Assembly: GCA_002781985.1 (NCBI GenBank)
Contig: PFGP01000107.1
Location: 20,011-53,602 of the forward strand
Direction: 5' to 3'
DNA: 33,592 nucleotides
From: Candidatus Taenaricola geysiri
Lineage (GTDB): Bacteria; Omnitrophota; Gorgyraeia; Taenaricolales; Taenaricolaceae
Shown here: one piece after another, positions 8,948 to 33,592 of the stretch
Layout of the letters: every line of letters begins with the position of its first letter
Position numbering within the stretch: the first letter of the stretch is position 1
Made by a program: the position numbers and the translations under genes
The notes under the pieces: generated by a model
Told to the model about the DNA's origin: nothing
Databases searched by the model: none
What the model saw: the letters and a program-made list of their open reading frames with translations, nothing else

Positions 8948-9973
8948 TTGAAAAAGATAGCAGTAGTAGGCGCAACAGGATATGCCGGCGAAGAACTCAT
9001 AAAGATTTTATTAAAGCATCCTGCCTGCCAAATAACTTATATATGCGCCAAGATTGATAAGCCGCAAAAGTTCAGCGATATATTCTCCTGGGCCAAAGGC
9101 AGGCTTGATCTTGTTTGCGATAATCCTGATTTAAAGAAGCTAAATCAGAGCGCCGAAATCGTCTTTCTCGCGCTTCCTCATAGGACGTCTATGGAAATAG
9201 CCTCTGATATCTTAAAGGCAGGCAAAGTTGTTATTGATCTAAGCGCTGATTACAGGTTTAAGGATGTTGCGGAATATGAAAAATGGTATGTTGTAAAACA
9301 TAAGGATATGGCCAATTTAGATAAGGCTGTTTATGGGTTGCCTGAGCTTTATAAAGAAAAAATAAAAAATGCCAAATTGATAGCAAACCCGGGATGTTAT
9401 CCTACAGCGGCCATTTTATCGCTTGCGCCGCTGTTGAAAGAAAAGATATGCCAGGCAGAAGGTATAATAATTGATGCAAAAACCGGCTACAGCGGCGCAG
9501 GAAGAAAGCCTGGTAATGATCCTTTTATGAGCCAGATAAATGATAATCTCAAGGCATATAAGATAGATGCGCATCAGCATTCTCCTGAAATTGATCAGGA
9601 ATTATCAAATGTTGCAGGCGAAAGCGTGAAGGTTGTTTTTGTGCCGCATTTACTGCCGATAGAAAGAGGGATTTTAGAGACGATATATGTAAAAGCTAAA
9701 AGCGAAAAGCTAAAAGCGAAAAGTTTGATTGAATTATATAATAAATTTTACAAGGATGCGCCGTTTGTGAGAATAAAGAACGAAGACGAATTCCCGCAGC
9801 TTAGCGATGTGCAGAACACGAATTTCTGTGATATAGGCGTAAAGGTAAACAGTGACGGCAAATTTATTATTATTGTCTCTGCCATAGACAATCTTACCAA
9901 GGGCGCCGCAGGCCAGGCAGTGCAGAATATGAATATTGTATGCGGTTTTAACGAAACAGAAGGTTTATTATGA
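8948..9973 (+). CDS. argC: N-acetyl-gamma-glutamyl-phosphate reductase
   Basis: GATGYAG, FLALPH, IDLSADYR, IANPGCYPT, SGAGR, DNLTKGAAGQAVQNMN. Confidence 0.98.
   Translation: MKKIAVVGATGYAGEELIKILLKHPACQITYICAKIDKPQKFSDIFSWAKGRLDLVCDNPDLKKLNQSAEIVFLALPHRTSMEIASDILKAGKVVIDLSADYRFKDVAEYEKWYVVKHKDMANLDKAVYGLPELYKEKIKNAKLIANPGCYPTAAILSLAPLLKEKICQAEGIIIDAKTGYSGAGRKPGNDPFMSQINDNLKAYKIDAHQHSPEIDQELSNVAGESVKVVFVPHLLPIERGILETIYVKAKSEKLKAKSLIELYNKFYKDAPFVRIKNEDEFPQLSDVQNTNFCDIGVKVNSDGKFIIIVSAIDNLTKGAAGQAVQNMNIVCGFNETEGLL
9691..9725 (+). repeat. Five tandem heptamers inside argC
   Basis: AAAAGCT AAAAGCG AAAAGCT AAAAGCG AAAAGTT, encoding KAKSEKLKAKS. Confidence 0.85.
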
Positions 9974-11178
9974 AAATGATAAAAGGCGGTGTTTGCGCTC
10001 CCAAAGGGTTTTTGGCGTCAGGCATATATTCCGGTATTAAAAAAAATGCCTTCAGCAAGGACCTTGCCTTGATATTTTCCGAGGCGATATGCACAGCGGC
10101 CGGTGTTTTTACAACTAATAAGATAAGGGCGGCTTGTATAAAAATATCAGGGGTTCATTTAAAGAATAATAAAGCGCAGGCCATAATAGTCAATAGCGGC
10201 AACGCAAATTGCTGCACAGGTGAACAGGGTTTTAGAGACGCAGAGCAAACAGCAGAGGTTGTTGCTAGGGCCCTTGATCTGAAGGCTTCTCTTGTGCTGA
10301 TTTCTTCAACCGGCGTTATAGGTAAACTTATGCCTATGGCAAAACTCATAAATCATATTCCGGCTTTGGTTGAACAATTAAACACGAGAAAGAGCAGAAA
10401 TGCGGCAGAGGCTATAATGACTACAGACAAGGTTGTAAAAGAGGCCGCAATCAGTTTTAAAATTGGCGGCAGGAAAGTTACTATAGGAGCTATTGCAAAA
10501 GGTTCAGGCATGATTTATCCTAATATGGCTACCATGCTTGGTTTTGTAACTACTGATGTGGCTATAGACGTAGCCGCGCTAAAGGCCGCGCTTAAATGTT
10601 GCGTGAACAATACGTTTAACTGTATAAGCGTTGATGGCGACACAAGCACGAATGACATGGTTTTAATCCTGGCAAATGCAGCCGCAGGCAACAAAAGGAT
10701 TACGCTTAACGCAAAAGCGGATTTTGAAAAGTTCAAAAACGCCCTGATGCAGGTACTTTTATATCTGGCAAAGAAAATAGCGAAAGACGGCGAAGGCGCC
10801 ACAAAACTTATCCAGGTTTGCGTAAAAGGCGCTTTAAATGATAAAGACGCCAGGCGCGCTGCGGCAACTGTATGCAATTCCAATCTGGTTAAGACAGCTA
10901 TTTATGGTGAAGATGCCAATTGGGGCAGGATTGCCGCGGCTTTAGGCAGAAGCAAAGCGGCATTAAAAGAGGAAAAATTATCCATATATATTGACAGGGT
11001 TAAGATATTTTCAAAGGGCCTTCCTGCGGATGCCGATGAAGGCGCCTTGAAAAATATTTTATCAAAAGATGAGATTAAGATAACTGTTGATTTAGGGCTT
11101 GGCAAGGCAGGCATAACCATGTGGACCTGCGATTTATCCGAGGAGTATGTAAGGATAAACGCGAAGTACAGAACATGA
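9970..11178 (+). CDS. argJ: Glutamate N-acetyltransferase / ornithine acetyltransferase ArgJ
   Basis: GVFTTN, NSGNANC, SSTGVIG, KGSGMIYPNMATML, DGDTSTND, DGEGATK, WTCDLSEEYVRINAKY. Confidence 0.98.
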   Translation: MKMIKGGVCAPKGFLASGIYSGIKKNAFSKDLALIFSEAICTAAGVFTTNKIRAACIKISGVHLKNNKAQAIIVNSGNANCCTGEQGFRDAEQTAEVVARALDLKASLVLISSTGVIGKLMPMAKLINHIPALVEQLNTRKSRNAAEAIMTTDKVVKEAAISFKIGGRKVTIGAIAKGSGMIYPNMATMLGFVTTDVAIDVAALKAALKCCVNNTFNCISVDGDTSTNDMVLILANAAAGNKRITLNAKADFEKFKNALMQVLLYLAKKIAKDGEGATKLIQVCVKGALNDKDARRAAATVCNSNLVKTAIYGEDANWGRIAAALGRSKAALKEEKLSIYIDRVKIFSKGLPADADEGALKNILSKDEIKITVDLGLGKAGITMWTCDLSEEYVRINAKYRT

Positions 11179-12029
11179 AAGACAGTATTAAAAAAGCAGA
11201 CATATTAATAGAAGCCATCCCTTATATAAGAGCGTTTAAGGATAAGGTCGTTGTTATAAAATACGGCGGCAGCGCGATGGAGGACATTGCTTCAAGGCAG
11301 AGCCTTTTAAGGGACATCATCTTTATGAATGCCGTAGGGATTAAGCCTATCCTTATACACGGAGGCGGGCCTGCAATAAGCCATAAATTAAAACAGCTTG
11401 GGAAAAATGTCAAGTTTGTAAACGGTAAAAGGGTGACAGACGAGCATACCATAAAGATCGTTGACAGGGTGCTTTCGAAAATCAATAAACAGATAGCCCA
11501 GGAGATAATTGATTTGGGCGGCTCGGCAAAACGCCTTCTGGCCAAAGATAATAATCTGGTGCTTGCAAAATGCAAAAATTCCAAACTTGGTTTTGTCGGC
11601 ACGCCAGTTTCAATAAATACAAGATTTATAAACAGGGTGCTTAAAAAAGGTTTTATACCGGTTATCTCTTCTGTCGGCAGGGGCTATGCAGATAGAAGGT
11701 TATATAATATAAACGCCGATGATGTAGCTTCTTTTACGGCAAAATCACTAAAGGCTGAAAAATTTGTTTTATTTACAAATGTTGAAGGTATATTAAAGGA
11801 CAAGGCAGATCAGGCTTCGCTTTTGTCTACCATGAAGGCAAGTCAGGCCAGGCTTCTTATTGCTTCAGGCGTAATATCCGAAGGCATGATACCTAAGGTT
11901 CAGGCATGCGTTGATGCGTTAAAGGCAGGCGTGAAGAAGGCGCATATAATAGGCGCGTATGTGCCGCATTCTTTGCTTCTTGAGATTTTTACAAAAAAAG
12001 GCGCCGGAACTGAGATTACCAGAGAGTAA
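11175..12029 (+). CDS. argB: Acetylglutamate kinase
   Basis: IKYGGSAM, HGGGPAI, RVTD, YNINAD, GMIPKV, HSLLLEIFT. Start placed at the ATGA overlap with the argJ stop (11175), not at 11121. Confidence 0.97.
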   Translation: MKDSIKKADILIEAIPYIRAFKDKVVVIKYGGSAMEDIASRQSLLRDIIFMNAVGIKPILIHGGGPAISHKLKQLGKNVKFVNGKRVTDEHTIKIVDRVLSKINKQIAQEIIDLGGSAKRLLAKDNNLVLAKCKNSKLGFVGTPVSINTRFINRVLKKGFIPVISSVGRGYADRRLYNINADDVASFTAKSLKAEKFVLFTNVEGILKDKADQASLLSTMKASQARLLIASGVISEGMIPKVQACVDALKAGVKKAHIIGAYVPHSLLLEIFTKKGAGTEITRE

Positions 12030-12032
12030 AAA

Positions 12033-13232
12033 ATGGATACCAAAAATATTATATCAAAATACGAAAAGTTTGTGGCGCCCACATACACCAGGCTGCCGAT
12101 AATCCTTACAAAGGGCGAGGGTTCAAGGGTCTGGGATTCAGAAGGCGCTGAATATCTTGATTTTTTCCCGGGCTGGGCAGTAAGCGGCTTGGGCCATTGC
12201 CATCCGATGGTGGTTAGCGCCATAAAAAAACAAGCGGGCTCAATGCTTCACGTATCGAATAATTATTATAACCTGCTTCAGGGCGAGCTTGCAGCGAAGA
12301 TAGTTGAAAACTCTTTTGATTCAAAGGTGTTTTTTGCAAATTCCGGAGCTGAGGCAAACGAGGCGGCTATTAAGCTGGCAAGAAGGTATTTTCAGGTTGT
12401 AAAAAAAATAGACAAATACGAAATCATCACAATGCAGAATTCTTTTCACGGCAGGACGCTTACAACCATAACAGCGACTGCGCAGCCTAAATACCAGCAG
12501 GGGTTTGCGCCATTGCCCGGAGGTTTTAAATATGTGCCTTTTAATGATTTTAAGGCGCTTGAAGCCGCTATTACTGATAAAACCGCTGCTATAATGTTTG
12601 AATTGATACAAGGCGAGGGCGGTATAAATGTTGCGGATAAAGATTATGTTTTAAAAGTGAGAAAACTGTGCAATGAAAAAGATATCATATTAATAATCGA
12701 TGAAGTGCAGACAGGAATCGGCAGGACAGGCACTATGTTTGCCTTCAGCCAGTATGGCATTATACCTGATGTAATGACCCTGGCCAAATCTTTAGGCGGC
12801 GGTATGCCTATAGGCGCAACTGTTATAGCAAAAAAGTATTCTGATGTATTGCAGCCTGGCACGCATGCCTCGACTTTCGGCGGCAGCCCTATAGTTTGCG
12901 CCGCAGCGCTGGCTGTTTTTGAGGCAATAAAAAAAGAGAACCTGCTTTTAAATGTGAAAAAACAGGGCGATTATATTAAAGGCCTGCTTCTTGGCTTAAA
13001 GGATAAATATAAATTGATAAAAGAACTAAGAGGCCCGGGCCTGATGCTTGGAGTTGAGCTTAATATAGAGGGAAAGCAGATCGTGCGGGATTGTATGGCC
13101 ATGGGGCTTTTGATTAACTGCACTCATGATACGGTTTTAAGGATAATGCCTCCCTTGGGCGTTACTGCGAAAGAAATAGACAAAGCGATAAAAATATTAG
13201 ATGAAGTTTTTAAAAAGACAGAAAGAGCTTAA
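12033..13232 (+). CDS. argD: Acetylornithine aminotransferase (class III PLP enzyme)
   Basis: NSGAEANEAAIK, SFHGRT, ELIQGEGG, DEVQTG.GRTG, TLAKSLGGG, HASTFGG. Confidence 0.96.
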   Translation: MDTKNIISKYEKFVAPTYTRLPIILTKGEGSRVWDSEGAEYLDFFPGWAVSGLGHCHPMVVSAIKKQAGSMLHVSNNYYNLLQGELAAKIVENSFDSKVFFANSGAEANEAAIKLARRYFQVVKKIDKYEIITMQNSFHGRTLTTITATAQPKYQQGFAPLPGGFKYVPFNDFKALEAAITDKTAAIMFELIQGEGGINVADKDYVLKVRKLCNEKDIILIIDEVQTGIGRTGTMFAFSQYGIIPDVMTLAKSLGGGMPIGATVIAKKYSDVLQPGTHASTFGGSPIVCAAALAVFEAIKKENLLLNVKKQGDYIKGLLLGLKDKYKLIKELRGPGLMLGVELNIEGKQIVRDCMAMGLLINCTHDTVLRIMPPLGVTAKEIDKAIKILDEVFKKTERA

Positions 13233-13233
13233 C

Positions 13234-14154
13234 ATGAAGAAAGATTTGATATCAATAAAAGACCTTTCGGTAGACGAGATAAAGCATATACTTGCTGTGA
13301 CCGACAAGTTAAAGGTAAGCCCGAAGGATACGGGCACGCCTTTGGCAGGCAGGTCCATGGGAATGATTTTTCAGAAACCATCCAACAGGACAAGGGTTTC
13401 CTTTGAGGTGGGCATGGCGCAGCTTGGTGGGCATGCGATATATCTGGGGCCGGATACCATAAAATTGGGAGAGAGGGAAAAGACCTCTGATATTGCTAAT
13501 ACGCTTTCAAGATACCTGGATATCCTGGTGGCAAGGGTGTTTTCGCATTCAGATATAGTAGAGCTTGCAAAACATTCAACCATACCGGTTATAAACGGTT
13601 TAAGCGATACTGAACACCCATGCCAGGCGCTGGCTGATGTCTATACGATAAAAGAAAAGGCAGGCAGTTTTAAAGGCGTAAAGCTTGTTTTTATCGGAGA
13701 CGGCAATAATGTGCTGCATTCGCTTTTGTATGCGTGCGCCAAGCTTGGAATTAATTTTACCGTTGTGACGCCTAAAAATTATCAGCCCAACAGAGAGATT
13801 TACAACCAGGCGCTTTTGTTTACAAAGGATTCCGGGGCAAAATTAGAGCTTCTTAACGATCCGAAAGCAGCGGTTAAAGGAGCGGATTTCATATATACCG
13901 ATGTATGGGCAAGCATGGGCCAGGAGACTCAGGCAAAGAAAAAGAAAAAGGCGTTTAAGGGTTTTTGCGTAAACGATAGACTTGTTTTGCTTGCCAAACA
14001 GAATTGCAAGATAATGCATTGCCTTCCGGCTCACAGGGGCGAGGAGATTACAGACAGCGTTATAGACGGGCCGAATTCAATAGTTTTTGATGAAGCTGAA
14101 AACAGGCTGCATGTGCAAAAGGCTGTTTTGTTGTGGTTGTTGGGAGAGAAATAG
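13234..14154 (+). CDS. argF: Ornithine carbamoyltransferase
   Basis: KPSNRTRVSFE, HPCQALAD, GDGNNV, YTDVWASMG, HCLPAHRG, EAENRLH. The likely start is ATG 13234 (MKKDLISI). Confidence 0.97.
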   Translation: MKKDLISIKDLSVDEIKHILAVTDKLKVSPKDTGTPLAGRSMGMIFQKPSNRTRVSFEVGMAQLGGHAIYLGPDTIKLGEREKTSDIANTLSRYLDILVARVFSHSDIVELAKHSTIPVINGLSDTEHPCQALADVYTIKEKAGSFKGVKLVFIGDGNNVLHSLLYACAKLGINFTVVTPKNYQPNREIYNQALLFTKDSGAKLELLNDPKAAVKGADFIYTDVWASMGQETQAKKKKKAFKGFCVNDRLVLLAKQNCKIMHCLPAHRGEEITDSVIDGPNSIVFDEAENRLHVQKAVLLWLLGEK

Positions 14155-14158
14155 TTTA

Positions 14159-14221
14159 CCCCACACTTCCGTGTGGGGAATGTACTGTGTAGCGGCGGAT
14201 ACCACACGCGGAAGCGTGTGG
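14159..14221. repeat. Inverted pair of REP-like GC-rich hairpins
   Basis: CCCCACAC-TTCC-GTGTGGGG (14159-14178) and CCACACGC-GGAA-GCGTGTGG (14202-14221). Confidence 0.75.
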
Positions 14222-14232
14222 AGGAGGAGACC

Positions 14233-15414
14233 ATGAAAAAAATAATTTTAGCATATTCCGGCGGATTAGATACATCCTGCATAGTCAGGTGGCTTACTGA
14301 TAGGGGCTGGGATGTTGTGTGTTTTGTCGCTGATTTAGGCCAGGGGTTAGGTAAAGGCGAGAATTTTGCCAGGATAAAGCAAAGGGCAATCGCAGCCGGC
14401 GCATCCAGGGTTTACATCAAAGATTTAAAAGACGAATTTGTCAAAGATTTTGTTATGTCTGCGCTTAAGGCAAACGCAGTATATGAAGGAAAATATCTTT
14501 TAGCAACCGCTTTGGGCAGGCCTTTGATTGCAAAATATCTGGTTGATATCGCGCACAAAGAAAAAGCGACTGCCATTGCCCATGGTTGCACAGGCAAGGG
14601 TAATGACCAGGTGAGAATAGAGGTCACTGCAAATATCCTTGATCCGAAATTAGAGATTATAGCGCCTGTAAGGACCTGGGAGCTTAAGTCAAGGGAACAG
14701 GAAATAGATTATGCGATTAAGAAAAAAATTCCAATAGATGTCAGCAAGAAAAAGCCGTACAGTTTGGATAAAAATCTCTGGGGCGTATCTATTGAGTCAG
14801 GCATCTTAGAGGATCCGCAGAATGAGCCGCCTGAGGATTGTTATCAGTGGACTGTATCGCCCCAAAAGGCGCCTAATAAGGCAACTTATGCAGAGATAAC
14901 ATTTGAAAAAGGGGTGCCTAAAAAATTAGACGGCAAGGCATATACAGGCGTTAAACTTATTGACAAATTAAACGCATTAGGCGCAAAGAATGCAATAGGC
15001 AGGGTTGATTGCATAGAAAACAGGCTTGTGGGCATAAAATCAAGAGAGATTTATGAAGCGCCTGCGGCCACTATCCTTTATACAGCGCATAAGGAGCTTG
15101 AGGCGCTTGTTTTGGATAAAGATCTTGCGCACTACAAAGAAAGCAGGTCAGGCCTGTACGGCGAGCTTATTTATAACGGTTTGTGGTATTCTGATATGAG
15201 GATTGCCATAGATAAGTTTATTCAGCAGACTCAGAAAAGAGTTACAGGCATAATCAAGCTTAAGCTATATAAAGGTAATTGCGCTGTAGCATCTAGAAAA
15301 TCGCCCTATTCATTATACAAAAAGCGCCTTGCGACGTATTCCGAAGGCGATAAGTTCGATCAGAAACTGGCGGAAGGATTTATTAAAATATACGGTATGC
15401 CGTTTAAAAAATGA
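14233..15414 (+). CDS. argG: Argininosuccinate synthase
   Basis: LAYSGGLDTS, HGCTGKGNDQVR, ENRLVGIKSREIYEAP. Start at ATG 14233 after an AGGAGG SD. Confidence 0.98.
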   Translation: MKKIILAYSGGLDTSCIVRWLTDRGWDVVCFVADLGQGLGKGENFARIKQRAIAAGASRVYIKDLKDEFVKDFVMSALKANAVYEGKYLLATALGRPLIAKYLVDIAHKEKATAIAHGCTGKGNDQVRIEVTANILDPKLEIIAPVRTWELKSREQEIDYAIKKKIPIDVSKKKPYSLDKNLWGVSIESGILEDPQNEPPEDCYQWTVSPQKAPNKATYAEITFEKGVPKKLDGKAYTGVKLIDKLNALGAKNAIGRVDCIENRLVGIKSREIYEAPAATILYTAHKELEALVLDKDLAHYKESRSGLYGELIYNGLWYSDMRIAIDKFIQQTQKRVTGIIKLKLYKGNCAVASRKSPYSLYKKRLATYSEGDKFDQKLAEGFIKIYGMPFKK

Positions 15415-15422
15415 GGTAGAAT

Positions 15423-16613
15423 ATGACTAAAAAATTATGGGGTGGAAGGTTTACTAAAAACACAGACCCGTTTGTAGAGAAGTTTACAAGGAGCCTGCAT
15501 ACGGATATCGCGCTTTTTGAGTATGATGTAACAGCAAGCATAGCGCATGCGAAGATGCTTGGTAAATGCAAAGTCATACCAAAAAAAGACGCCCAAAAAA
15601 TAGTCAAAGGCCTTGTCAGCATATTAAACGAATTTGAAAAGGGCAAAACAAAAATAGATCAGTCAGCCGAGGATGTGCATACGCTTGTGCAGGCCTTACT
15701 TGAAAAGAAGATAGGCGCGCCTGCAAAAAAGCTTCACACAGCAAGATCCAGAAACGACCAGGTTTCAACAGACACAAGGATGTTTGCCAAGGATTATATA
15801 ATTGTTTTGATTGAAGTTGTAAAAGATTTACAGGCATCGCTTGACTCTGTTGCCAATAGGCACAAAACTGTATCAATGCCCGGTTATACGCATATGCAGC
15901 ATGCGCAGCCGGTTTTGTTTAAAAACTATACCGGAGCTTACAGGGAAATGTTTGAAAGGGATAAAGAAAGGCTTTCTGAAATATATAAAAGGATAGATAT
16001 TCTGCCCCTGGGAAGTTGCGCTTTAGCAGGCACAAGTTTGGCTATTGACAGAAAATTTGTTGCCAAAGAACTTGGGTTTTCAAAGGTTTCGCAGAATACA
16101 CTTGATGCTGTAAGCGACAGGGATTTTATAATAGAGATATTAAGCGCCGCAGCATTAACGGGTATGCACATGTCAAGGATATCAGAAGACCTTATTATCT
16201 GGTCCACATCAGAGTTTAATTTTGTGGATATCGACGAGGCATTCTGCACAGGCAGCTCCATTATGCCGCAGAAGAAAAATCCTGACGTACTTGAATTAAT
16301 CAGGGGTAACGCAGGCAGATTATACGCTAACCTTATGTCAATGCTGGTTACTATGAAGGGCCTGCCGCTTACATATAACAGGGATATGCAGCTTGATAAA
16401 GCGCCGCTTTTTGATTCATTAAACATAATTAAAGATCAGCTTGAAATTTTGTCAAAGCTTATCAGGACTATGAAGCTGAATAAGGCGGCCATAGACAGGC
16501 AATTGCAGGACCCGGGGTTGTATGCGACTTTAATGGCAGAAAGATTGGTAAAAAAAGGTGTATCGTTTAAGGATGCCCACAGAATAGTAGGAAAGAATTA
16601 TGCACGACTTTAA
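15423..16613 (+). CDS. argH: Argininosuccinate lyase, C-terminally shortened (396 aa)
   Basis: LWGGRF, HTARSRNDQ, PGYTHMQHAQP, GSSIMPQKKNPD, LPLTYNRDMQ; ends soon after FKDAHRIVG. Confidence 0.95.
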   Translation: MTKKLWGGRFTKNTDPFVEKFTRSLHTDIALFEYDVTASIAHAKMLGKCKVIPKKDAQKIVKGLVSILNEFEKGKTKIDQSAEDVHTLVQALLEKKIGAPAKKLHTARSRNDQVSTDTRMFAKDYIIVLIEVVKDLQASLDSVANRHKTVSMPGYTHMQHAQPVLFKNYTGAYREMFERDKERLSEIYKRIDILPLGSCALAGTSLAIDRKFVAKELGFSKVSQNTLDAVSDRDFIIEILSAAALTGMHMSRISEDLIIWSTSEFNFVDIDEAFCTGSSIMPQKKNPDVLELIRGNAGRLYANLMSMLVTMKGLPLTYNRDMQLDKAPLFDSLNIIKDQLEILSKLIRTMKLNKAAIDRQLQDPGLYATLMAERLVKKGVSFKDAHRIVGKNYARL

Positions 16614-17841
16614 ATTTAAAAATAAAAAGCTTTACTGTGAAAACATAGACGTTGAATATCTGGCAAGGCGTTTCGGCACCCCGCTTTATGTCTACAGCTA
16701 TAGCACCTTGATAAATCATTATCTTAAGTTAAAGGACGCGTTTAAGAGTATAAACCCGTTGATTTGTTATTCGGTAAAGGCCAATTCTAATATGGCGATA
16801 ATCGAATCGCTTATTAATAAGGGCGCAGGCCTTGATGTTGTCTCAGGCGGTGAGCTTTTCAGGGCGCTTAAGGCAGGATGTCCGGCTAATAGAATTGTTT
16901 ATGCGTCTGTCGGAAAGACCGATAACGAAATAAAAGAGGCGCTTAGCGCCGGAATCTTATTTTTCAATGTTGAATCTTTGCCTGAGCTTGAGAATATAAA
17001 CCGTATTGCCAGAAAACTTGATAAGGCCGCCAGGGTCGCGATAAGGATAAATCCTGACGTAGAGGCAAAGACGCATAAGTTTATTACAACAGGAAAGATA
17101 ACAAATAAGTTTGGCATAGATTTAAACAGCGCTTACAATATCCTTTTGATGCGTTCTAAGTTTTCCAATATAGATATATCCGGGCTGCATATTCATATAG
17201 GTTCACAGATAACCAACGGCGAGCCTTTTGTTGCCGCTATAACCAAGATTATAAAGTTTATAGGCCAGCTTAAGAAAAAAGGTATAGGGCTTGAATACCT
17301 TAATATAGGCGGCGGCCTGGGCATTGTGTATGATAAAGAAACGCCTCAGACAGCCATGAAGTTTGCCAAAAAGGCGCTGCCGCTTCTTAAGGCCACAGGT
17401 TTAAAGATTATTATGGAGCCGGGCAGGTTTATCGTCGGTAACGCAGGCATTATGGTTACAAAGGTTTTGTATGTCAAGCCAACGCCCAAGAAGAAGTTTA
17501 TAATAGTGGATGCAGGCATGAATGATCTGATACGCCCGGCATTATACGGGGCGTATCATCAAATTTTACCGCTTAGTTTGGTATCAGGTAGAAGAGAAAA
17601 GGTTGATGTAGTCGGGCCTATTTGTGAAAGCGGAGATTTTTTTGCCAAGGATAGAATTATGCCCAAGGTTTCAGAAGGAGATTATATAGCGGTAATGAGC
17701 GCAGGCGCCTATGGTTTTACCATGGCAAGTAATTATAACTCGCGGCGCAGGGCTTGCGAGATTCTTGTATCCGGAACCGATGTGTCTGTGATAAGAGACA
17801 GGGAGACTTACGGGGATTTGATTCGCAATGAAAAATATTAA
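16600..17841 (+). CDS. lysA: Diaminopimelate decarboxylase
   Basis: GTPLYVY, YSVKANS (PLP lysine), HIHIGSQI, EPGRFIVG, VGPICESGD, GAYG..MASNYN. Confidence 0.98.
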   Translation: MHDFKFKNKKLYCENIDVEYLARRFGTPLYVYSYSTLINHYLKLKDAFKSINPLICYSVKANSNMAIIESLINKGAGLDVVSGGELFRALKAGCPANRIVYASVGKTDNEIKEALSAGILFFNVESLPELENINRIARKLDKAARVAIRINPDVEAKTHKFITTGKITNKFGIDLNSAYNILLMRSKFSNIDISGLHIHIGSQITNGEPFVAAITKIIKFIGQLKKKGIGLEYLNIGGGLGIVYDKETPQTAMKFAKKALPLLKATGLKIIMEPGRFIVGNAGIMVTKVLYVKPTPKKKFIIVDAGMNDLIRPALYGAYHQILPLSLVSGRREKVDVVGPICESGDFFAKDRIMPKVSEGDYIAVMSAGAYGFTMASNYNSRRRACEILVSGTDVSVIRDRETYGDLIRNEKY

Positions 17842-18697
17842 GTTTACAAAGATGTCAGCTGCGGGCAATGACTTTGTTGTTGTAGAGGACAGCGATTTAT
17901 GCGGCCTTGCCGGCAAGATCTGCGACAGAAGATACGGCATTGGCGCAGACGGTATGTTGTTGCTTGAGAAAACCGCCAAGGCTGATATAAGGATGCGCAT
18001 ATTCAATCCCGACGGCAGCGAAGTTGATATGTGCGGTAACGGCGCGCGCTGCGCGGCAGTGTATTATACTTATATGCTATCAGCTATACGCTATCCGCTG
18101 ATCAAAATAGAAACCAAGGCCGGTATTTTAGAAGCAAAGATTGATGGCGACATGGTTAAGCTTAAAATGTCTGATCCGCACAGTATGAAATTGGATATTT
18201 CGCTCGTCATTGCGAGGAACGACGAGCGAAAGCGAGGAGTGACGAAGCAATCTCCTTGCTCAAAATCGGAGATTGCTTTGGGCACTTCGTGCCTTCGCAA
18301 TGACGTAATGGTCGTTAATTTTATTAATACAGGCGTGCCGCACGCTGTTATTTTCGTGGATGATCTGGAAAATATAGATGTTGATAAATTGGGCAGGGCA
18401 ATAAGAAACAGCGAGCGTTTTGCGCCAAAAGGCGCAAATGTCGATTTTGTCAAAGTGCTGGGTAAAGATAAAATCGCGGTCAGGACATACGAGCGCGGGG
18501 TTGAGGCAGAGACCTTGGCCTGCGGAACCGGATGCGTTGCAGCCGCGATACTCTCAGGCGCAGGCCGCAGTGTTGATGTAGTTACGCATGGAGGCGAAAT
18601 TTTAAAGGTGTGTTTCGAAAAAAAAGGCGCTAAGGTCAGTAATGTATGGCTTGAGGGAAGCGCGAAGATAGTATATAAAGGAAGGATGGAATTATGA
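17828..18697 (+). CDS. dapF: Diaminopimelate epimerase carrying repeat-derived in-frame segments
   Basis: GNDF, GIGADG, MCGNGARC, TGVPH, RTYERGVEAETLACGTG; both catalytic Cys residues are present. Confidence 0.97.
   Translation: MKNIKFTKMSAAGNDFVVVEDSDLCGLAGKICDRRYGIGADGMLLLEKTAKADIRMRIFNPDGSEVDMCGNGARCAAVYYTYMLSAIRYPLIKIETKAGILEAKIDGDMVKLKMSDPHSMKLDISLVIARNDERKRGVTKQSPCSKSEIALGTSCLRNDVMVVNFINTGVPHAVIFVDDLENIDVDKLGRAIRNSERFAPKGANVDFVKVLGKDKIAVRTYERGVEAETLACGTGCVAAAILSGAGRSVDVVTHGGEILKVCFEKKGAKVSNVWLEGSAKIVYKGRMEL
18076..18099 (-). repeat. Short heptamer array inside dapF
   Basis: GCTATCA GCTATAC GCTATCC GCT on the + strand; the reverse complement matches the heptamer family at 9691 and 33247. 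Confidence 0.6.
18205..18305. mobile_element. ~101-bp palindromic REP/RPE-like element lying in-frame inside dapF
   Basis: Terminal IR CGTCATTGCGA/TCGCAATGACG; inner stem AAGCAATCTCC (18245-18255)/GGAGATTGCTT (18268-18278); small hairpin GGCAC-TTC-GTGCC. Translates as VIARNDERKRGVTKQSPCSKSEIALGTSCLRND. Confidence 0.8.
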
Positions 18698-24754: not shown

Positions 24755-24795
24755 TAAATTTTCAAATATGAAAATTTAAAGGAGGTGATTTGAGG

Positions 24796-25041
24796 ATGGC
24801 ACAGAAAGTTGCAAAGGTAGGCGTTAAAAGGCAGAAGGGATTTCTGTATTTTATCGACAAGAAAGGCGATGTTTCCTGCGCAAAGATGTCCAGAGGTGCA
24901 AAAAAAGGCGGTAGCCCTAAAAAGGTGGCAAAGGTTGGCGTTGAGAAAAAGTCAGGATATCTTTATTTCGTTGATAAGCAGGGTGATGTTTCCTGCGCAA
25001 AGATGGTCCGTGGCGGAAAGAAAAAGAAAAAAAGAAAATAA
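24796..25041 (+). CDS. Small, highly basic protein with two 39-aa repeats (function unknown)
   Basis: Strong SD AAGGAGGTGA (24779-24788) 7 nt before ATG 24796; two copies of KVAKVGV...G(F/Y)LYF(I/V)DK.GDVSCAKM.RG; poly-Lys tail. Confidence 0.85.
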   Translation: MAQKVAKVGVKRQKGFLYFIDKKGDVSCAKMSRGAKKGGSPKKVAKVGVEKKSGYLYFVDKQGDVSCAKMVRGGKKKKKRK

Positions 25042-25055
25042 ATTTAAAATAAAAA

Positions 25056-25088
25056 GGGGACAGGCTTAAGATATTAAGGCCTGTCCCC
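25056..25088. terminator. GC-rich hairpin between the small basic gene and uvrA
   Basis: GGGGACAGGC (25056-25065) pairs with GCCTGTCCCC (25079-25088); an A-run lies upstream and the + strand T-tail is weak. Confidence 0.6.
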
Positions 25089-25098
25089 GTATTTACAT

Positions 25099-27876
25099 AT
25101 GAGCGATTATATTACAATAAAAGGCGCGAAAGAACACAATTTAAAGAATCTGAATTTACAGATTCCGCGCAATAAGCTTGTTGTTATTACCGGATTAAGC
25201 GGTTCAGGTAAATCTTCCCTTGCCTTTGATACCATATATGCTGAAGGCCAGCGCAGATATGTCGAGAGCCTGTCCGCGTACGCGAGGCAATTTTTAGAAC
25301 AACTGCAAAAACCGGATGTAGAGCACATAGAAGGTATCTCACCGGCGGTTTCCATTGAGCAGCGCGCAGCAGGCTCAAACCCCCGTTCAACGGTAGCCAC
25401 TCAAACAGAGATATATGACTATCTTAGATTGTTATTTGCGCGCATAGGCATCCCGCATTGTCCGAGGTGCGGCAGAAAAATTCAGGGCCAGTCATCTGAG
25501 CAGATAGTCAGGCAAGTCCTGACGTTTCCGCAAGGAAAAGAAATCATAACATTAGCGCCTTTAGTCAGGGGAAGAAAAGGCGAGCACGTGCAATTACTGC
25601 AAGATGTAAAAAAACAGGGTTTTGTGCGTGTGCGCGTCGACGGTAAAATGATAGACCTTTCCGGCAAGATTATACTCGATAAAAAGATAAAACATGACAT
25701 AGAGATTGTTATAGACAGGCTGGTAATCAAACCCGGCATAAAAAAGCGCCTTACTGAATCCGTTGAAACAGCGCTTAAGGTAGGATCCGGCCTTGTGATG
25801 ATAAATGACAGAAATATCTTATTCAGTCAGCAGCATGCTTGCCCCGAATGCGGCATAAGCCTTGAAGAGATAGAGCCGCGCGTATTTTCATTTAACAGCC
25901 CTTATGGCGCATGTCCTAAATGTAGCGGCCTTGGCACCAGGGTTGAAATGGATCCTGATCTTGTTGTGCCGGATAGGGATAAATCTTTAAGGCAAGGCGC
26001 CATAGCGCCATGGCATAAGACAGGCAAAAACATATTTTTATATTACCGCGGCATGTTAAATGAATTGGCCAACAGGCGTAATATAAATATGGATACGCCT
26101 TTTAAAAAATTAGAGCAGCGCGTAAGGGATTTGATACTTTATGGTTCTGATGACGAGATCTGGGGTAAGAAATATGAAGGCGTTATACCGAATTTAGAGC
26201 GCAGGTTTGTCCAGACAGACAGTGATTACATGCGTAATGAAATAAATAAGTATATGTCAACCTCGCCATGCGTTTCCTGCCGCGGGGCGCGGTTAAAGCC
26301 TGAGTCGCTTGCAGTAAAGATAGCCGATAAAAATATCCATGAACTAACGCAATTTTCAATAACTAAGGTAAAAGAGTTTTTTGCGGGCCTTAAATTAACA
26401 GAGACAGAAAAAACAATAAGCCGCCATATATTAAAAGAGATAAATGCGCGGCTTACATTCATGAATGATGTTGGCCTTGGTTATCTTACGCTTGATCGCA
26501 TAAGTTCAACGCTTTCAGGCGGCGAGGCGCAAAGGATACGCCTGGCAACCCAGATAGGCGCGGCTTTAGTGGGAGTTTTATATATTTTAGATGAACCTTC
26601 AATAGGCCTACACCAGAAAGATAATACAAAACTTTTGGATACATTAAAGGCCTTAAGGGATTTGGGCAATACCTTAATTGTCGTCGAGCATGACGAAGCT
26701 ACAATCCGCTCGGCAGACTATATTATAGACTTAGGCCCTGGCGCAGGCAAACATGGCGGCCACGTTGTCGCGCAGGGCAGTTTAAAAAATATTTTAAAAT
26801 CAAAAAGATCTCTTACAGCCAGATATTTAAATGGAAAGCTGCAGATACCTGTGCCAAAGAAAAGAAGAGAGCTCATAAAAGATAAATCCCTGATTATAAA
26901 AGGCGCGGCAGAACATAACTTAAAAAACATTGATGTAAAAATACCTCTCGGGCTTTTTGTTTGCGTAACAGGCGTTTCAGGCTCAGGAAAATCTACGTTA
27001 GTTGATGAAATTTTATACAGGGCGCTTGCAAAAAAATTATACAAGTCAAAGATAAAACCCGGAAAACATAAAGAGATCCAGGGCATTGAGAATATAGACA
27101 AGGTTATAGTGATAGATCAGTCGCCTATAGGCCGCACCCCGCGCTCAAACCCGGCGACATACACAGGCGCCTATTCGCAGATACGCGATTTATTCGCGAA
27201 GCTGCCTGAATCCCGGATACGCGGTTTTAAGCCGGGCAGGTTCAGTTTTAATGTTAAGGGCGGCCGTTGCGAGGCATGCCAGGGCGACGGAGTGAAAAGA
27301 ATAGAGATGCATTTTTTGCCGGATGTGTATGTTACCTGCGAGGTTTGCGCGGGTAAACGTTTCAGCGGCCAGACGCTGGAGGTAAAATACAAAGGCAAGT
27401 CGATTTCAGACGTTTTGGGTATGACCGTCGAGGAAGCGCTGAATTTATTTGAAAATATACCGCAGATAAAAGAGAAGTTTAAAACTCTGAATGATGTTGG
27501 CCTTGGGTATATTCAGCTCGGCCAATCAGCAACGACTTTATCAGGCGGCGAGGCGCAGCGCATAAAGCTGTCAACGGAACTGTCAAAACGCCAGACAGGA
27601 AAGACGTTTTACATTTTAGATGAACCGACAACAGGCCTGCATTTTGCGGATATCGACAGGCTGCTTTCTGTCCTGCACCGCTTAGTTGACGCAGGCAATA
27701 CGGTTTTAGTTATAGAGCACAATTTAGATGTAATTAAAACAGCAGACTATATTATTGACCTTGGCCCAGAGGGCGGGGACAAGGGCGGCCATATTATTGC
27801 TGAAGGAACGCCTGAGGACATAATCAAATCAAAATTTTCCTACACCGGCCAGTATCTTTTCAGGCATATTTCATAG
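25099..27876 (+). CDS. uvrA: Excinuclease ABC subunit A
   Basis: [23 protein letters not shown], two LSGGEAQRI signatures, GVSGSGKST and zinc-binding CxxC pairs. Confidence 0.99.
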
Positions 27877-27883
27877 ATTTTTC

Positions 27884-27912
27884 TTGCAAAAAATTGCCTT
27901 ATTTGGTAATAT
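27884..27912 (+). promoter_or_regulatory. Putative sigma70 promoter for the TPR-ExbBD operon
   Basis: TTGCAA(27884-27889)-17 nt-TAATAT(27907-27912) with an extended -10 TG. Confidence 0.5.
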
Positions 27913-27936
27913 AGCCTATATTAACAGGAATATATA

Positions 27937-30450
27937 ATGAGACTAACAATATTATTATATCTAATATTAATACATATATGGACCAATACATGCTATGCGT
28001 ATCAGTCTTTTGAAAAAGGCAGGGTGAATTTTAGTAAAGAATCCCAGGCTGTTACAGTCAAAGGTGAAGAGGAAAGCCTGGCATTGATAAAAAGACTGTT
28101 GAATGACAAGTTTTATGATGTAGCCATAAGTGAATGTGAGAATTTTTTGCGCAGGTATCCGTTAAGCGTTAATATAAGTCAGGCGCATGTTGTTTTAGGC
28201 CAATGCTATTATCAAAAAGGCAAATTCGCGCAGGCAATATACGAATTCAACACTGTTCTTGAGCGGCCTCAGGCAATACTTGACAGGGAAGACGCGCTTT
28301 ACTGGCTTGGCGAGACATATCTTAAGGCAGGCGATTTGGATAATTGTCTTAATAGTTTCGAGCAATTCATCCAGCAATATCCTGACAGCCGGTACATAGT
28401 GTTCGCTTATTATTCAAAGGGTTGGGCGCTGTTTAATGCGGGTAACTATGTTCAGGCAACAGAGGCCTTTGAAAAGATAGTTTACGATTTTAAAGACAAC
28501 AAACTTGCGCCAGAGGCTTTATTTAAGTCCGCCGAGTGCCTGTATAAAAATAACAGTTTTTTAAGGGCCTTGTCGCAACTGGGCGCGTTTCTGAATAGAT
28601 ATCCTACTTCTGAATTTGCGCCGGCCGCGTATTACTATCTGGGCCAGGTGCAGTATCAGCTCGGCAGGCTTGATGATGCAATAGAAAGTTTTGACAGGTC
28701 AATAGTCATATCCAAGAATCAGCAATACATGTCTCTTTCTTTGTACGCAAAGGCCATAACGTATATAAAATCAGGCGATATGAAAAAGGCATTAAAGTCG
28801 CTTGATGATTTTGACGAAAAATATTATTCGGAATTAATGGCTGATGAGGTTTTATACAGAAAGGCCCAGATATATCTGACGCAGAATGATTATATAAAGG
28901 CCATAGAAGATTTTGACCAGATTATAGACAGGTTCAGTAAAAGCCAGTGGCTTGACGATGCCTATCTGGGTAAGGCATCAGCGCTTTTTGACAGCGGTAA
29001 AAACGATTTAGCCCTGATATGGTACAAAAATCTTATAAAGGTTTTTCCGCAAAGCAAGCTTGCCCCCAAAGCATACTACGCCCTGGGAAATATTTACCAG
29101 GCGCAGGCTGAATACTCTGTCGCGTTTGATAATTTCAGGTTATCTTACGAAACCTCTGATGAAGACGATATCAAGGTAGGGGCTGTGCTTAAGATGGCTG
29201 ATACGCGTATGCTACAAAAGGATTATAAGGCAGCTACAGAGCTTTATGATATAGTCCTTAAAAAATATTCTGAAAACCGGATGATCGATTACGCCCAGTA
29301 TCAGCTTGGCGTTGCGCTGTATCAGATGAAAAATTACCGCGGGTCTATTTTGTCACTGCAGAGCATGATACTGAACTTTCACGATAGTAACCTGATCATA
29401 GAAGCTCAATATCAGCTGGGCCTTGCATATTTTAAGATAGGCGATTACGAAAAGGCAAGGTTTGAATTTTCCAAGGTGCTTAATTCTCAGGCAAAGCATC
29501 TTCATTTTGACGCGCTGCTTCAAACAGGCAATTCTTTTTATAATGATAAGCAGTTTGAGCAGGCGCTTGCCTCTTTTGAAAAGGTAATAAAAAATTATCC
29601 TGGCAGGCCTGATTTATGGAAGGCAAGGTATGAGATAGCATGGTGTTATTACCAGCTGGGAGCTGAAAAAAAGGCGCTTGAGGAATTTACGCTGCTTTTG
29701 GATAAATACCCTGATCTTGAAATCGCTCCGGATATTTCATTCTGGATAGGGCAGTATTTTTATAATCAGGATAAACTTGACAAGGCAAAGGAATATTTTT
29801 TGGGTGTAGTCGAGGGTTTTCCCAAAAGCGATGTCAGGGATCAGGCGTTATACTGGCTGGGCTGGACAAGCTATAAGGCAGCCGATTACAAAAACGCCAT
29901 AAATTGTTTCAAAAGAGTTTCTGTCGAATATCCTGACAGTAACCTTGCAAAAGAATCATTGCTTAATACCGGCCGCATACTAACCGAGCGCGCAGAATAT
30001 GATTCTGCTGTGGCTAAATTCGAAGAGTTGATTCAGAAATCCGAAAGTGGGGCGCTTAAGAAAGCAGCCTATATAAATATAGCTGAAATAATGCGCAGGC
30101 AGAAATTTTACGACAAGGCTATAGAAAATTACAGAAAGGCGCTGACGATAAGCGATAAACAGGCGGATGCGCAGATAAGGCTTGATATTGCTGAGTGCAT
30201 GGAAGCATTAGGCGATAAAAAAGCCGCGGCCAGCGAATACCTGGATATATCTTACGCGTATTCGTATGATTCTGCGATCATGTCAAAGGCGCTTGTAAAA
30301 GCGGCGGAATTATTTAGCGAAAATGGCCAGGCAGAGCCTGCGCGCAGGGCTTATGAGAAGATAGCGCAGTTAAATACAGAAGAGTCTAAACTAGCTCAGC
30401 AGAAATTTAAACAAATACCATTAAAACTGAATGAGGAGGTAGCGAGATGA
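27937..30450 (+). CDS. Exported multi-TPR protein (BamD/CpoB-type repeats)
   Basis: N-terminal signal peptide (..TCYA); recurring units (Y/F)P.S....A.Y..G..YY...Y..A...F along nearly all 837 aa. Confidence 0.9.
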   Translation: MRLTILLYLILIHIWTNTCYAYQSFEKGRVNFSKESQAVTVKGEEESLALIKRLLNDKFYDVAISECENFLRRYPLSVNISQAHVVLGQCYYQKGKFAQAIYEFNTVLERPQAILDREDALYWLGETYLKAGDLDNCLNSFEQFIQQYPDSRYIVFAYYSKGWALFNAGNYVQATEAFEKIVYDFKDNKLAPEALFKSAECLYKNNSFLRALSQLGAFLNRYPTSEFAPAAYYYLGQVQYQLGRLDDAIESFDRSIVISKNQQYMSLSLYAKAITYIKSGDMKKALKSLDDFDEKYYSELMADEVLYRKAQIYLTQNDYIKAIEDFDQIIDRFSKSQWLDDAYLGKASALFDSGKNDLALIWYKNLIKVFPQSKLAPKAYYALGNIYQAQAEYSVAFDNFRLSYETSDEDDIKVGAVLKMADTRMLQKDYKAATELYDIVLKKYSENRMIDYAQYQLGVALYQMKNYRGSILSLQSMILNFHDSNLIIEAQYQLGLAYFKIGDYEKARFEFSKVLNSQAKHLHFDALLQTGNSFYNDKQFEQALASFEKVIKNYPGRPDLWKARYEIAWCYYQLGAEKKALEEFTLLLDKYPDLEIAPDISFWIGQYFYNQDKLDKAKEYFLGVVEGFPKSDVRDQALYWLGWTSYKAADYKNAINCFKRVSVEYPDSNLAKESLLNTGRILTERAEYDSAVAKFEELIQKSESGALKKAAYINIAEIMRRQKFYDKAIENYRKALTISDKQADAQIRLDIAECMEALGDKKAAASEYLDISYAYSYDSAIMSKALVKAAELFSENGQAEPARRAYEKIAQLNTEESKLAQQKFKQIPLKLNEEVAR

Positions 30451-32620: not shown

Positions 32621-32642
32621 TTAATTTGAAAGGAGAGGTTTT

Positions 32643-32909: not shown

Positions 32910-32932
32910 AAACAATATAGAGTTTGCCAGGG

Positions 32933-33250
32933 ATGAAAAAATATATAGTTGTGTTTATAACCGCTTCCTGCCTTAAAGAGGCCAGGAAGATAGCGGATGC
33001 CTTGTTATCAAAAAGGCTTGTTGCGTGCGTAAATATTATAAAAGGCGTAGATTCTTTTTTTACCTGGAAGCGTAAAAAAGAACGCGCCAGAGAAATATTG
33101 TTAATAGCAAAAACAGAATTTTCAAAATTTGGTGAAGTTGAAAAACTCGTTAAAAGAAATCATTCCTACGAAACCCCCGAAATAATAGCAATCCCGATAG
33201 TAGCCGGCAGCAAGCAATATCTAAAATGGATAGAAGACTCAGTCAAGTAA
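32933..33250 (+). CDS. cutA: Divalent-cation tolerance protein CutA
   Basis: LVACVNI, SFFTW, LLIAKT, HSYETPEII, YLKWI; start at ATG 32933 (TTG 32924 is an alternative). Confidence 0.95.
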   Translation: MKKYIVVFITASCLKEARKIADALLSKRLVACVNIIKGVDSFFTWKRKKERAREILLIAKTEFSKFGEVEKLVKRNHSYETPEIIAIPIVAGSKQYLKWIEDSVK

Positions 33251-33592
33251 GCGTAAAGCGTATAGCGAAAAGCGCAAAGTTTAAGCGCAAAGTTAAAAAC
33301 GTTTTAAGTTTTAAATTTCAGTTTTGCGTTTTTCGCTTTGCATTTTGCGCTCTCTTTATATTATTTTTTATATCAGGTTGCGCCACGGTTTACAACTCTG
33401 CCACAGGCAGGCAGGAATACAGGTTTATAACTACTTCTGAAGAAGTTAAAATAGGCTCGGATATTGCCAGGCAGATAGAGGCAAGGTTTAAGGTTGTTAA
33501 TGACCCTATAAGACAGGGGCGTTTAAATTATATAGGCCAGCGTTTGTCAGTTGTCTGTGACCGCCAGGATTTGATTCATACATTTAAGATTG
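33226..33592 (+). CDS. Probable M48-family metalloprotease lipoprotein, partial (runs off the window)
   Basis: Open frame from ATG 33226 to the window end: ...LFFISGCATVYNSATGRQEYRFITTSEEVKIG...YIGQRL...DRQDL..TFKI, with a lipobox and an N-terminal pattern typical of M48 lipoproteins. HEXXH lies outside the window. Confidence 0.7.
   Translation, partial: MDRRLSQVSVKRIAKSAKFKRKVKNVLSFKFQFCVFRFAFCALFILFFISGCATVYNSATGRQEYRFITTSEEVKIGSDIARQIEARFKVVNDPIRQGRLNYIGQRLSVVCDRQDLIHTFKI
33247..33352. repeat. Quasi-palindromic heptamer-repeat element
   Basis: Left arm GTAAGCG TAAAGCG TATAGCG AAAAGCG CAAAGTT TAAGCG CAAAGTT; centre AAAAC|GTTTT (33296-33305); right arm TTTTGCG TTTTTCG CTTTGCA TTTTGCG, the reverse-complement type. 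Confidence 0.8.

Follow-up and report, generated by a model that had tools for sequence, protein, structure and literature searches.

The stretch of DNA analyzed here (the window; 33,592 nt of the genome of Candidatus Taenaricola geysiri) contains argC, dapF, the argF-argG intergenic region and a lipoprotein-like open reading frame (ORF) at its right end, all of which carry short repeats (Table 1). All five repeat features lie at the positions given in the original prediction, and the repeats are genuine. As was also predicted, the patches in argC, in dapF and at 33 kb belong to one loose heptamer family (the left arm at 33 kb mixes AGCGTAT and AGCGAAA), the intragenic repeats keep the reading frame in every case, and inspection of the window's ORF list revealed no transposase-like ORF. 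No Rfam family or tRNA was detected in the window. A single-copy, terminator-like hairpin at 8884-8923 was excluded from the repeat count. The 102-nt repeat at 24805-25023 proved to be an internal protein duplication and not a mobile repeat, and the uvrA repeats are likewise internal protein duplications.

Table 1. Repeats of the window and the genes that contain them
Feature	Position	Strand	Description
argC	8948..9973	+	Heptamer-array host; TIGR01850 above cut-off
Heptamer array in argC	9690..9723	+	AGCTAAA/AGCGAAA, 4.9 units, read as VKAKSEKLKAKS
Two REP-type hairpins between argF and argG	14158..14225	+	Stems 14159-14178 and 14202-14221
dapF	17828..18697	+	Host of two different repeats; TIGR00652 above cut-off
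Heptamer array in dapF	18071..18099	-	Minus-strand AGCGGAT/AGCGTAT/AGCTGAT/AGCATAT, read as MLSAIRYPL
CGTC-ended palindrome in dapF	18205..18305	.	101 nt; gene-less form of element at C3:577-968
Lipoprotein-like ORF	33226..33591	+	Cut by contig end; earlier called 'M48 gene'
Left heptamer arm	33249..33294	+	Purine-rich, read as K/R-rich stretch
Right inverted heptamer arm	33306..33351	-	

The source assembly (152 contigs) contains 35 period-7 arrays, against 3 to 8 in 10 synonymous-codon shuffles; such a control had been named beforehand as a possible refutation, and the repeats passed it. The two-unit AGC motif likewise occurs at 35 genomic loci, compared with 11 to 18 in shuffles. When periods 4 to 15 were scanned, clear enrichment besides 7 was seen only at the harmonic, 14. 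Almost all period-7 arrays are within ORFs, and the coding fraction by a crude ORF call is 0.97. Array density is low (35 per 1.27-Mb genome), and the units are degenerate, with several unit families per genome.

The argC array is 34 nt long but adds a net 3 nt relative to orthologs, and therefore about 10 codons have been replaced. In a predicted structure of ArgC (pLDDT about 90), strand 242-250 and helix 257-267 are joined by a loop, and the array would span the strand end, the loop and the helix start. The site had been described as a variable loop, a description at odds with the exactly 15 residues found between anchors in 34 of 38 array-free orthologs. Among 41 genomes, three different heptamer arrays occupy this loop, giving lengths of 16, 17 and 15 residues versus 15. 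Four further, closer relatives (58-75% identity) have other repeats at the same site: one has a palindrome, another an 8-mer-like repeat, and the remaining two have heptamers, decayed in one case and with a nested palindrome in the other. Palindromes at this site add 9 residues. Loops without arrays are A-rich.

Internal arrays in ortholog families (n = 25) have a median length of 30 nt and a median net change of +3 nt, where ancestral loop lengths are class medians and not true empty alleles. For the 14 strongest internal arrays, the medians are 31.5 nt and +6.75 nt, and by hand count 12 gain less than half their own length. In a hand-chosen set of 11 further source-genome arrays (10 of the 22 internal arrays plus queC), 6 are within 6 nt of their orthologs and 4 add 15 to 33 nt, one site being too variable to read. 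The queC array (score 15), one of these six length-neutral cases, may be due to chance. In QueA, an array stands in place of the TGGKVE hairpin. Plain insertions also occur, in pgm (+21 nt), uvrA (+42 nt) and tsaB (about +30 nt, read from an alignment with poor anchors). The sense strand is purine-rich in 19/22 internal arrays versus 3/8 N-terminal arrays. The same protein sites are reused by different units in independent lineages; the LysA loop, for example, has four different units in four genomes and a fifth in L251. Heptamer arrays are thus often nearly length-neutral and replace resident codons, a finding that is new here. The prediction spoke of new peptide segments; many heptamer arrays substitute codons rather than lengthen the protein by their full size. 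A literature search of main texts, covering few subscription journals, found neither codon replacement by heptamer arrays nor PF05635 cassettes outside rRNA; the supplements of PMC11893778, PMC3733652 and PMC6006769, outside that search, may list these variants.

The dapF heptamer array adds a net 6 nt relative to the ortholog median and leaves the same length as in the closest relative. According to the structural model, it would occupy the end of helix 70-84 and the next loop. The dapF gene of the closest relative shows possible array decay. The palindrome in dapF folds strongly (z of -6.2, with 0/200 shuffles folding equally well). It corresponds to residues 127-159, a net gain of 28 residues (84 of 101 nt added), and its segment is modeled with low pLDDT (52-56). 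Its ends are terminal inverted repeats, CGTCATTGCG, a classical MITE feature that single heptamer arms do not have. No consistent target-site duplication was seen at the flanks of six copies compared by eye, without a true empty site. Elsewhere in the genome, a GIY-YIG gene (C3:622-912) lies between palindrome halves, forming a hairpin-GIY-YIG-hairpin element (C3:577-968) with inverted CGTC-tagged hairpins on both flanks. The 96-aa, single-domain product matches PF01541 (E 1e-16), and its Y9, Y20 and E67, read from the sequence without alignment, are spaced as Y6, Y17 and E64 of SsnA. Inverted GTCAT ends are present for 10 of its 12 best homologs; a stricter motif was found in 0/18 weaker matches. 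No palindrome copy of the genome fits the degenerate SRM pattern as published; the pattern does match in L113 and L116. Judged by sequence, the dapF palindrome is a gene-less CGTC-REP/Ssn-type element, a published kind, and it may be nicked as single-stranded DNA by an Ssn-like GIY-YIG protein whose gene is enclosed by these half-elements.

The argF-argG hairpin pair (z of -4.6) has a second copy on contig C22. In relatives, a short Y1 transposase (PF01797) has the same hairpins within its own reading frame; this protein is present in 6/201 genomes, and the first hairpin is in frame in all six. The cognate Y1 protein had no match at E 1e-12 in the source assembly of 152 contigs, which contains six other Y1_Tnp genes. 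The pair probably consists of REPs left by this Y1 transposase. The palindrome and the REP pair are both new members of already published kinds.

The inverted heptamer pair at 33 kb (z of -2.6) lies in an ORF with a single in-frame standard start, which gives it a 25-nt overlap with the upstream gene. Its right arm is read as a hydrophobic F/C/A-rich stretch followed by a lipobox-like FISGC. Homologs of this ORF were found in 35/41 genomes. The truncated ORF has no Pfam or NCBIfam match, and its M48 label is that of the original prediction. The arm pair has the layout of a putative gene-less cassette.

Cassettes of this layout that do contain a gene point to a carrier for the heptamers. All five PF05635 (four-helix-bundle) genes of the source genome have period 7-10 arms (four on both sides, one cut by a contig end), and all five adjoin protein genes and not rRNA. 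In the DNA examined, arrays flank PF05635 genes on both sides in 53/69 cases versus 30/995 for control genes. The arms of a pair are inverted copies in 49/66 cases and direct copies in 3/66. The upstream neighbors (n = 77) fall into 63 families, and 75/77 are co-oriented. Among gene-less arrays, 27/182 have a 12-mer in common with an own-genome arm (permutations gave a mean of 6.1 and a maximum of 17, p 0.001), in a comparison that covered 86/128 listed genes and in which some matches are local, since many sampled loci surround those genes; the other 155/182 have no own-arm match. Array pairs share 12-mers in 9.1% of cases within a genome versus 0.8% between genomes. In the source genome, only 3/33 gene-less arrays match an own arm, and no four-helix-bundle arm matching the window's AGC family was found in the assembly. 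The number of PF05635 genes per genome was not significantly associated with that of coding arrays (Spearman 0.28, p 0.077; rank test p 0.063), and three arrays come from genomes without a PF05635 match. A common sequence grammar was not apparent, the information content of the units being no higher than that of shuffles. From the arm pairs and the shared 12-mers we infer that the heptamer arrays derive from four-helix-bundle cassettes, as arms that became detached. The four-helix-bundle protein of contig C4 matches 2gsc, a structure of five chains (E 1.8e-14). A correspondence of five units to five subunits was considered and is suggestive only: arms and arrays have a median of 31 nt, mostly 4 to 5 units, and the lower side of this range is set by the detector, which needs about 23 to 28 nt.

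The window contains three unrelated repeat systems, in frame or intergenic, and for each of them a candidate carrier lies elsewhere. The original prediction of a single spreading process therefore stands as to spread in trans but not as to a single process. Its description of the repeats as imported, trans-spread sources of new peptide segments is supported, and the mobilizer it left unnamed now has candidates in the GIY-YIG gene, the four-helix-bundle genes and the Y1 transposase family of relatives.

Whether the repeats still spread, as had been proposed, was addressed with contigs from sequencing runs. No empty alleles were found in contigs of four runs over window positions 8800-28700 or of four over contig C4, a comparison in which contigs drop rare variants, 23/24 listed runs may be those from which this DNA came, and the region compared does not extend to the 33.2-kb pair. 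One depth-2 contig joins the C4 arms across 18 other letters and cannot be placed at the C4 locus. Gene-less intergenic heptamer arrays occur at 1.2 per 100 kb in the source genome versus 93 per 100 kb in the sampled stretches of relatives, while internal arrays occur at 2.3 versus 1.7 per 100 kb. Given same-population contigs with repeats but no empty allele, degenerate units and scarce intergenic copies, the proposed present activity is not supported. A repeat that has replaced codons could no longer be deleted cleanly, so that copies in coding sequence would persist longer than those between genes; the window's heptamer family looks like such a relic.

The repeats pair with three small gene families, change gene length almost neutrally (the heptamers) and return to the same sites. 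An explanation with somewhat better than even prospects is that three repeat families spread in trans with small genes of their own, the heptamers overwriting about 10 codons through a recombination or repair step that would write the array in and remove a similar amount of DNA. The predicted ring protein may bind its own arms, with host enzymes doing the strand work, because no catalytic role is known for the four-helix-bundle protein. Only events that leave both frame and fold intact would survive selection, with purine-rich strands (K/R/S/Q/E) tolerated in surface segments and pyrimidine-rich strands (F/L/C/S) in signal peptides.

The rival that survives best, which we regard as unlikely but credible, is a stepwise route without any special overwriting step, in which an empty cassette, or an array of 21 or 42 nt, is inserted in frame and host codons are then deleted under selection for the former loop length. 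Each step could be viable, and the plain insertions at pgm, tsaB and uvrA, together with the palindromes that lengthen ArgC and DapF, resemble its first stage. It fits less well with three independent ArgC arrays that all end at 15 to 17 residues with 4 to 5 units kept and host residues gone, as slippage loss of a repeat should be easier than loss of unique host codons; the similar density of internal arrays in the source genome and its relatives also counts against it. A further reading is doubtful: one-step writing, new to bacteria and driven by four-helix-bundle cassettes, in which a five-subunit ring would hold an arm of 4 to 5 heptamers and overwrite about 30 bases of a gene with frame and length nearly unchanged. 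If true, loops and signal peptides of essential proteins would be rewritten repeatedly, and this process would have left the orphan heptamer repeats found in many phyla as its footprints.

Local polymerase slippage, by which arrays grow from chance seeds and four-helix-bundle genes simply happen to lie among them, is quite improbable. A polymerase preference for slips of 7 nt has been described (Mrazek et al. 2007, as summarized in PMC4679880), and the lack of a shared unit grammar, the A-rich array-free loops, the window's family without a carrier and the arrays in genomes without a PF05635 match are all compatible with it. However, unit sharing between unrelated genes is about 12 times greater within than between genomes, and inverted arm pairs around mobile genes, along with empty inverted pairs, had already weakened this rival. 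Slippage also adds length, and replacement of a conserved motif, as with TGGKVE in QueA, is not among its effects.

Homing by diversity-generating retroelements (DGRs) is an in-place replacement. A related retrohoming, with an Avd-like four-helix-bundle protein and a reverse transcriptase writing arm cDNA over the target, could likewise replace codons in place, and the source genome has one reverse transcriptase. The Avd match is weak (E 6.5e-6, 26 bits versus a cut-off of 80), and reverse transcriptases do not co-occur with the cassettes (10/31 genomes with a PF05635 gene versus 3/10 without); on these two grounds identity with DGR Avd was rejected. The array-rich genomes G006, G021, G026 and G040, whose assemblies are incomplete, had no reverse transcriptase match, and we consider retrohoming very improbable. 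Least probable is a host-selected signal, binding or uptake sites kept for function and spread by biased recombination like the DNA uptake sequences (DUS) of Neisseria, which are likewise found at permissive coding positions and are formed through recombination opposite unrelated sequence (PMC2397512): arrays do lie at tolerant sites of core genes, but their low density, the degenerate units, the several unit families in each genome, the rapid turnover seen at a single site and what may be decay in dapF of the closest relative speak against it.

In-frame repeats are usually regarded as additions to proteins. Heptamer arrays often substitute resident codons, in essential genes too, and sites reused with different repeats are natural replicate experiments on segments that tolerate wholesale sequence change. 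The arrays also offer a testable handle on two questions, the origin of bacterial heptamer repeats and the role of the PF05635 protein.

The cassettes resemble 23S rRNA intervening sequences (IVS; PF05635/TIGR02436), in which a four-helix-bundle ORF lies between complementary ends; in Coxiella, tandem heptamers precede the S23p ORF (PMC4990558; structure 2GSC). The cassettes described here differ in lying outside rRNA, between co-oriented operon genes and at many sites, and in having gene-less arms inside protein genes. The available text of PMC4990558 gives no mobility mechanism for the S23p IVS. Bacterial heptamer repeats resemble the arrays in their period of 7, their roughly four genome-specific units and their inverted pairing, but are mostly intergenic, and a carrier gene and codon replacement are absent from the available accounts (PMC4679880, PMC4692102). 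Neisserial DUS are also short motifs put into core genes by recombination; they are one 10-mer with thousands of copies and a known receptor, in contrast with the 30-nt arrays of many unit families found here (PMC2397512). The argF-argG pair recalls REP/RAYT systems (REPtrons), as relatives encode a Y1_Tnp HUH gene with cognate hairpins, and differs in that the cognate transposase was not found in the source genome. REPs inside the gene are described for TnpA-Y1 subclass 2.4, while the Y1 proteins here are short with the Y---Q motif given for IS200 subclass 1.1 (PMC6006769). Like Ssn elements and CGTC REPs, the C3 element has a stand-alone GIY-YIG gene (94-96 aa) between inverted CGTCAT-tagged hairpins (PMC11893778, PMC3733652). 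Its nuclease is putative, and the dapF-type variant does not match the SRM pattern; for Ssn nucleases with NTS/SRM hairpins, mobilization by Ssn is itself only hypothesized in the text available (PMC11893778). Head-to-head dimers and intragenic copies of CGTC REPs are known (PMC3733652). Rickettsia palindromic elements, of which RPE-4 and RPE-6 are CGTC repeats, also lie in frame in housekeeping genes; they are described as added peptides (PMC10969869, PMC3733652), whereas the heptamers form tandem arrays, lack a palindromic structure and often leave length almost unchanged.

The original prediction placed five repeat features in the window. All five were confirmed, all in frame (see the table), and so was an excess over codon-shuffled controls. 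The window lies on contig C108 of an assembly totaling 1.27 Mb in 152 contigs (96.6% complete). The genome contains 35 period-7 arrays versus 4 and 2 for two kinds of shuffle, and 10 synonymous-codon shuffles gave 3 to 8 arrays each. Apart from period 14, no other period was in clear excess in the genome-wide array search. By a crude ORF call, 22 of the 35 arrays are ORF internal, 8 are N-terminal, 2 are C-terminal, and 3 are intergenic. Comparisons were made with 40 relatives, one from each of 40 families; the window ArgC is 58% identical to that of its best named relative, an Omnitrophota genome. The single spreading process originally proposed resolves into three separate systems: the dapF palindrome, the argF-argG pair, and the heptamers. 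A fourth repeat family, of the GGTGCCAGGCACC type, has 24 matches in the assembly (contig C96 included), 10 of them within ORFs, and fills the ArgC loop of L251, the closest relative's locus.

Repeat features of the window and two further observations
Feature	Positions	Remarks
argC heptamer array	9690-9723	34 nt long; net gain only 3 nt
argF-argG hairpin pair	14158-14225	one additional genomic copy
dapF heptamer array	18071-18099	
dapF palindrome	18205-18305	101 nt; both ends CGTCATTGCG; net gain 84 nt; ~15 family loci in genome, ~5 within ORFs
Inverted heptamer arms	33249-33294, 33306-33351	
Mfd-like protein	2159-4057	only 632 aa; same short form at relatives' loci L251 and L253
Basic protein	24790-25041	83 aa; its halves resemble each other (102-nt direct repeat, 74%)

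The mobilizer had been called unknown; candidates can now be named, namely, PF05635 genes for the heptamers, a GIY-YIG gene for the palindrome, and, in relatives, Y1 transposases for the argF-argG pair. Each of the genome's five PF05635 (four-helix-bundle) genes has its own arms, with a period of 7, 8, or 9-10. We sampled 86 of the 128 listed matches, from 31 genomes, and 69 were near full length with both flanks. Arrays lay on both sides of 53 of these 69 genes versus 30 of 995 control genes. The arms were inverted copies in 49 of 66 cases, and 77 upstream neighbors, nearly always co-oriented, represented 63 different families. These inverted arms and varied, co-oriented neighbors indicate that the cassette is mobile and enters operons in sense. 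Of 182 arrays lacking the gene, 27 have a 12-mer in common with an arm from the same genome, more than expected by chance (at most 17 in permutations); some of these matches are local because loci were fetched around PF05635 genes. The PF05635 cassette is thus the likely carrier of the heptamers. Besides the local matches, three results count against this link: only 3 of 33 gene-less arrays in the window genome match its own arms, the window's AGC heptamer family matches none of them, and the per-genome correlation between PF05635 genes and arrays is not significant.

Additional 8-mer and 9/10-mer arms, of the cassette types on C144 and C1, lie on contigs C21, C144, C13, C77, C99, and C118; they are intergenic and often at contig ends, and further cassettes may be unassembled. 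A 1,508-aa ORF (C85:3476-7999) has intein-like segments bearing heptamer arrays and includes an in-frame empty inverted array pair. Upstream of argG in relative G034 (L175:116-400), ~280 nt of heptamer arrays of several unit types are stacked. Two armed four-helix-bundle genes (L213, G031:C8; L220, G037:C33) lie ≤3 kb from a reverse transcriptase gene, possibly a DGR context.

Arrays in genes changed length little: 25 internal arrays had a median length of 30 nt and a median net change of +3 nt (31.5 and +6.75 nt for the 14 strongest). At the ArgC site, the distance between anchors is 15 residues in 34 of 38 array-free orthologs. Three genomes carry arrays there, built from three different units and found in both orientations, with 16, 17, and 15 residues at the site. 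Four further metagenome relatives have other repeats there, three adding 9 residues and one, a decayed heptamer, adding 2. The repeat-derived ArgC peptide is modeled as normal structure (pLDDT, ~90). In the LysA loop, which is array free in the window, each of four genomes carries a different array, and the closest relative carries yet another, the fifth. At the dapF heptamer site, the closest relative has an equal-length segment whose residues are similar but show no clear periodicity; it may be an array copy that has decayed. A GC-rich palindrome (peptide CLAGRQ/LPARQAG) is nested in heptamer arrays at L142, L183 (dapF), and L255 (argC), i.e., repeats inserted into repeats.

These patterns favor, on sequence comparison, a reading in which the arrays are probably detached cassette arms: the arms would detach and be written into host genes, in a step that would remove roughly as much DNA as it adds. 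The main rival, insertion first and stepwise trimming later, appears rather unlikely. Eleven further arrays of the window genome, chosen by us in recognizable genes with 3 to 11 orthologs each, bear on both: 6 were within 6 nt of orthologs, 4 added 15 to 33 nt, and 1 was unreadable, so insertion and replacement each occur. The QueA array occupies the position of the orthologs' TGGKVE motif; that in queC may be chance. Writing by reverse transcriptase found no supporting evidence in a reverse transcriptase survey.

Of 22 internal arrays, 19 are purine rich on the sense strand and encode K/R/S/Q/E peptides, as against 3 of 8 N-terminal arrays, the remainder of which give hydrophobic stretches; we read this bias as a selection filter. 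Translated, an empty cassette gives a run of basic residues and then a hydrophobic run, the signal-peptide pattern also seen at 33249-33351. We infer that the start codon at 33226 of this lipoprotein-like ORF is in use; in 3 of 28 other homologs, the leader carries an array of its own. At the relatives' loci L314, L317, L321, L329, and L332, the open frame of the lipoprotein homolog is continuous with that of a Maf-like gene lying upstream.

For the dapF palindrome, the same two halves flank a 96-aa GIY-YIG ORF on contig C3. Inverted ends of this kind accompany 10 of the relatives' 12 best GIY-YIG homologs (one exception lacks the upstream end, and the other is cut by a contig end); a stricter end motif was found at none of 18 weaker matches. 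DapF has 21 residues at this site in 35 of 38 other rows versus 49 in the window, and one further genome carries an insert of another kind there. The palindrome-derived segment is poorly ordered in the structure model. A palindrome half at L232:14006-14040 recurs at ≥92% identity in dozens of contigs from each of four groundwater runs, with unrelated AT-rich flanks. A search of 201 genomes recovered the first argF-argG hairpin at 12 places, distributed over 8 of the genomes, and the reversed control at none. No cognate Y1 transposase was found in the window's assembly, and in the closest relative this gap is occupied by another repeat, of the CGTC type. Short Y1 transposases at L245 to L250 have an IS200-like Y---Q motif yet in-frame REP hairpins; that of L245 lies exactly between argG and argH, without terminal hairpins.

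The "active" spreading originally proposed found no support. No empty alleles of the argC, argF-argG, or dapF repeats, or of the C4 cassette, appeared in contigs from four runs; one run contributed a contig with 14 differences over 11.8 kb and the repeats still filled. That run contigs span the repeats argues against an assembly artifact, although most runs may be source material. Gene-less arrays number 93 per 100 kb in the relatives' sampled intergenic DNA versus 1.2 in the window genome; for internal arrays, the two densities are similar (1.7 and 2.3 per 100 kb, respectively). Most simply, the repeats expanded in the past, and their coding copies are now locked in.

The C3 arrangement resembles ssnA between NTS/SRM hairpins, where the Ssn protein cleaves single-stranded DNA beside the hairpin (PMC11893778). 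Since the dapF-palindrome variant departs from the SRM pattern as published, we call the element only "Ssn-like." Its layout also resembles CGTC REP dimers, of which intragenic copies are known (PMC3733652). In subclass 2.4, REPs within the transposase gene have been described (PMC6006769), and one rRNA intervening sequence has been reported to carry heptamers upstream of an ORF of the PF05635 type (PMC4990558). Measured codon replacement and site reuse are new here, with no precedent found in the literature searched; two of the three repeat systems belong to already published kinds.
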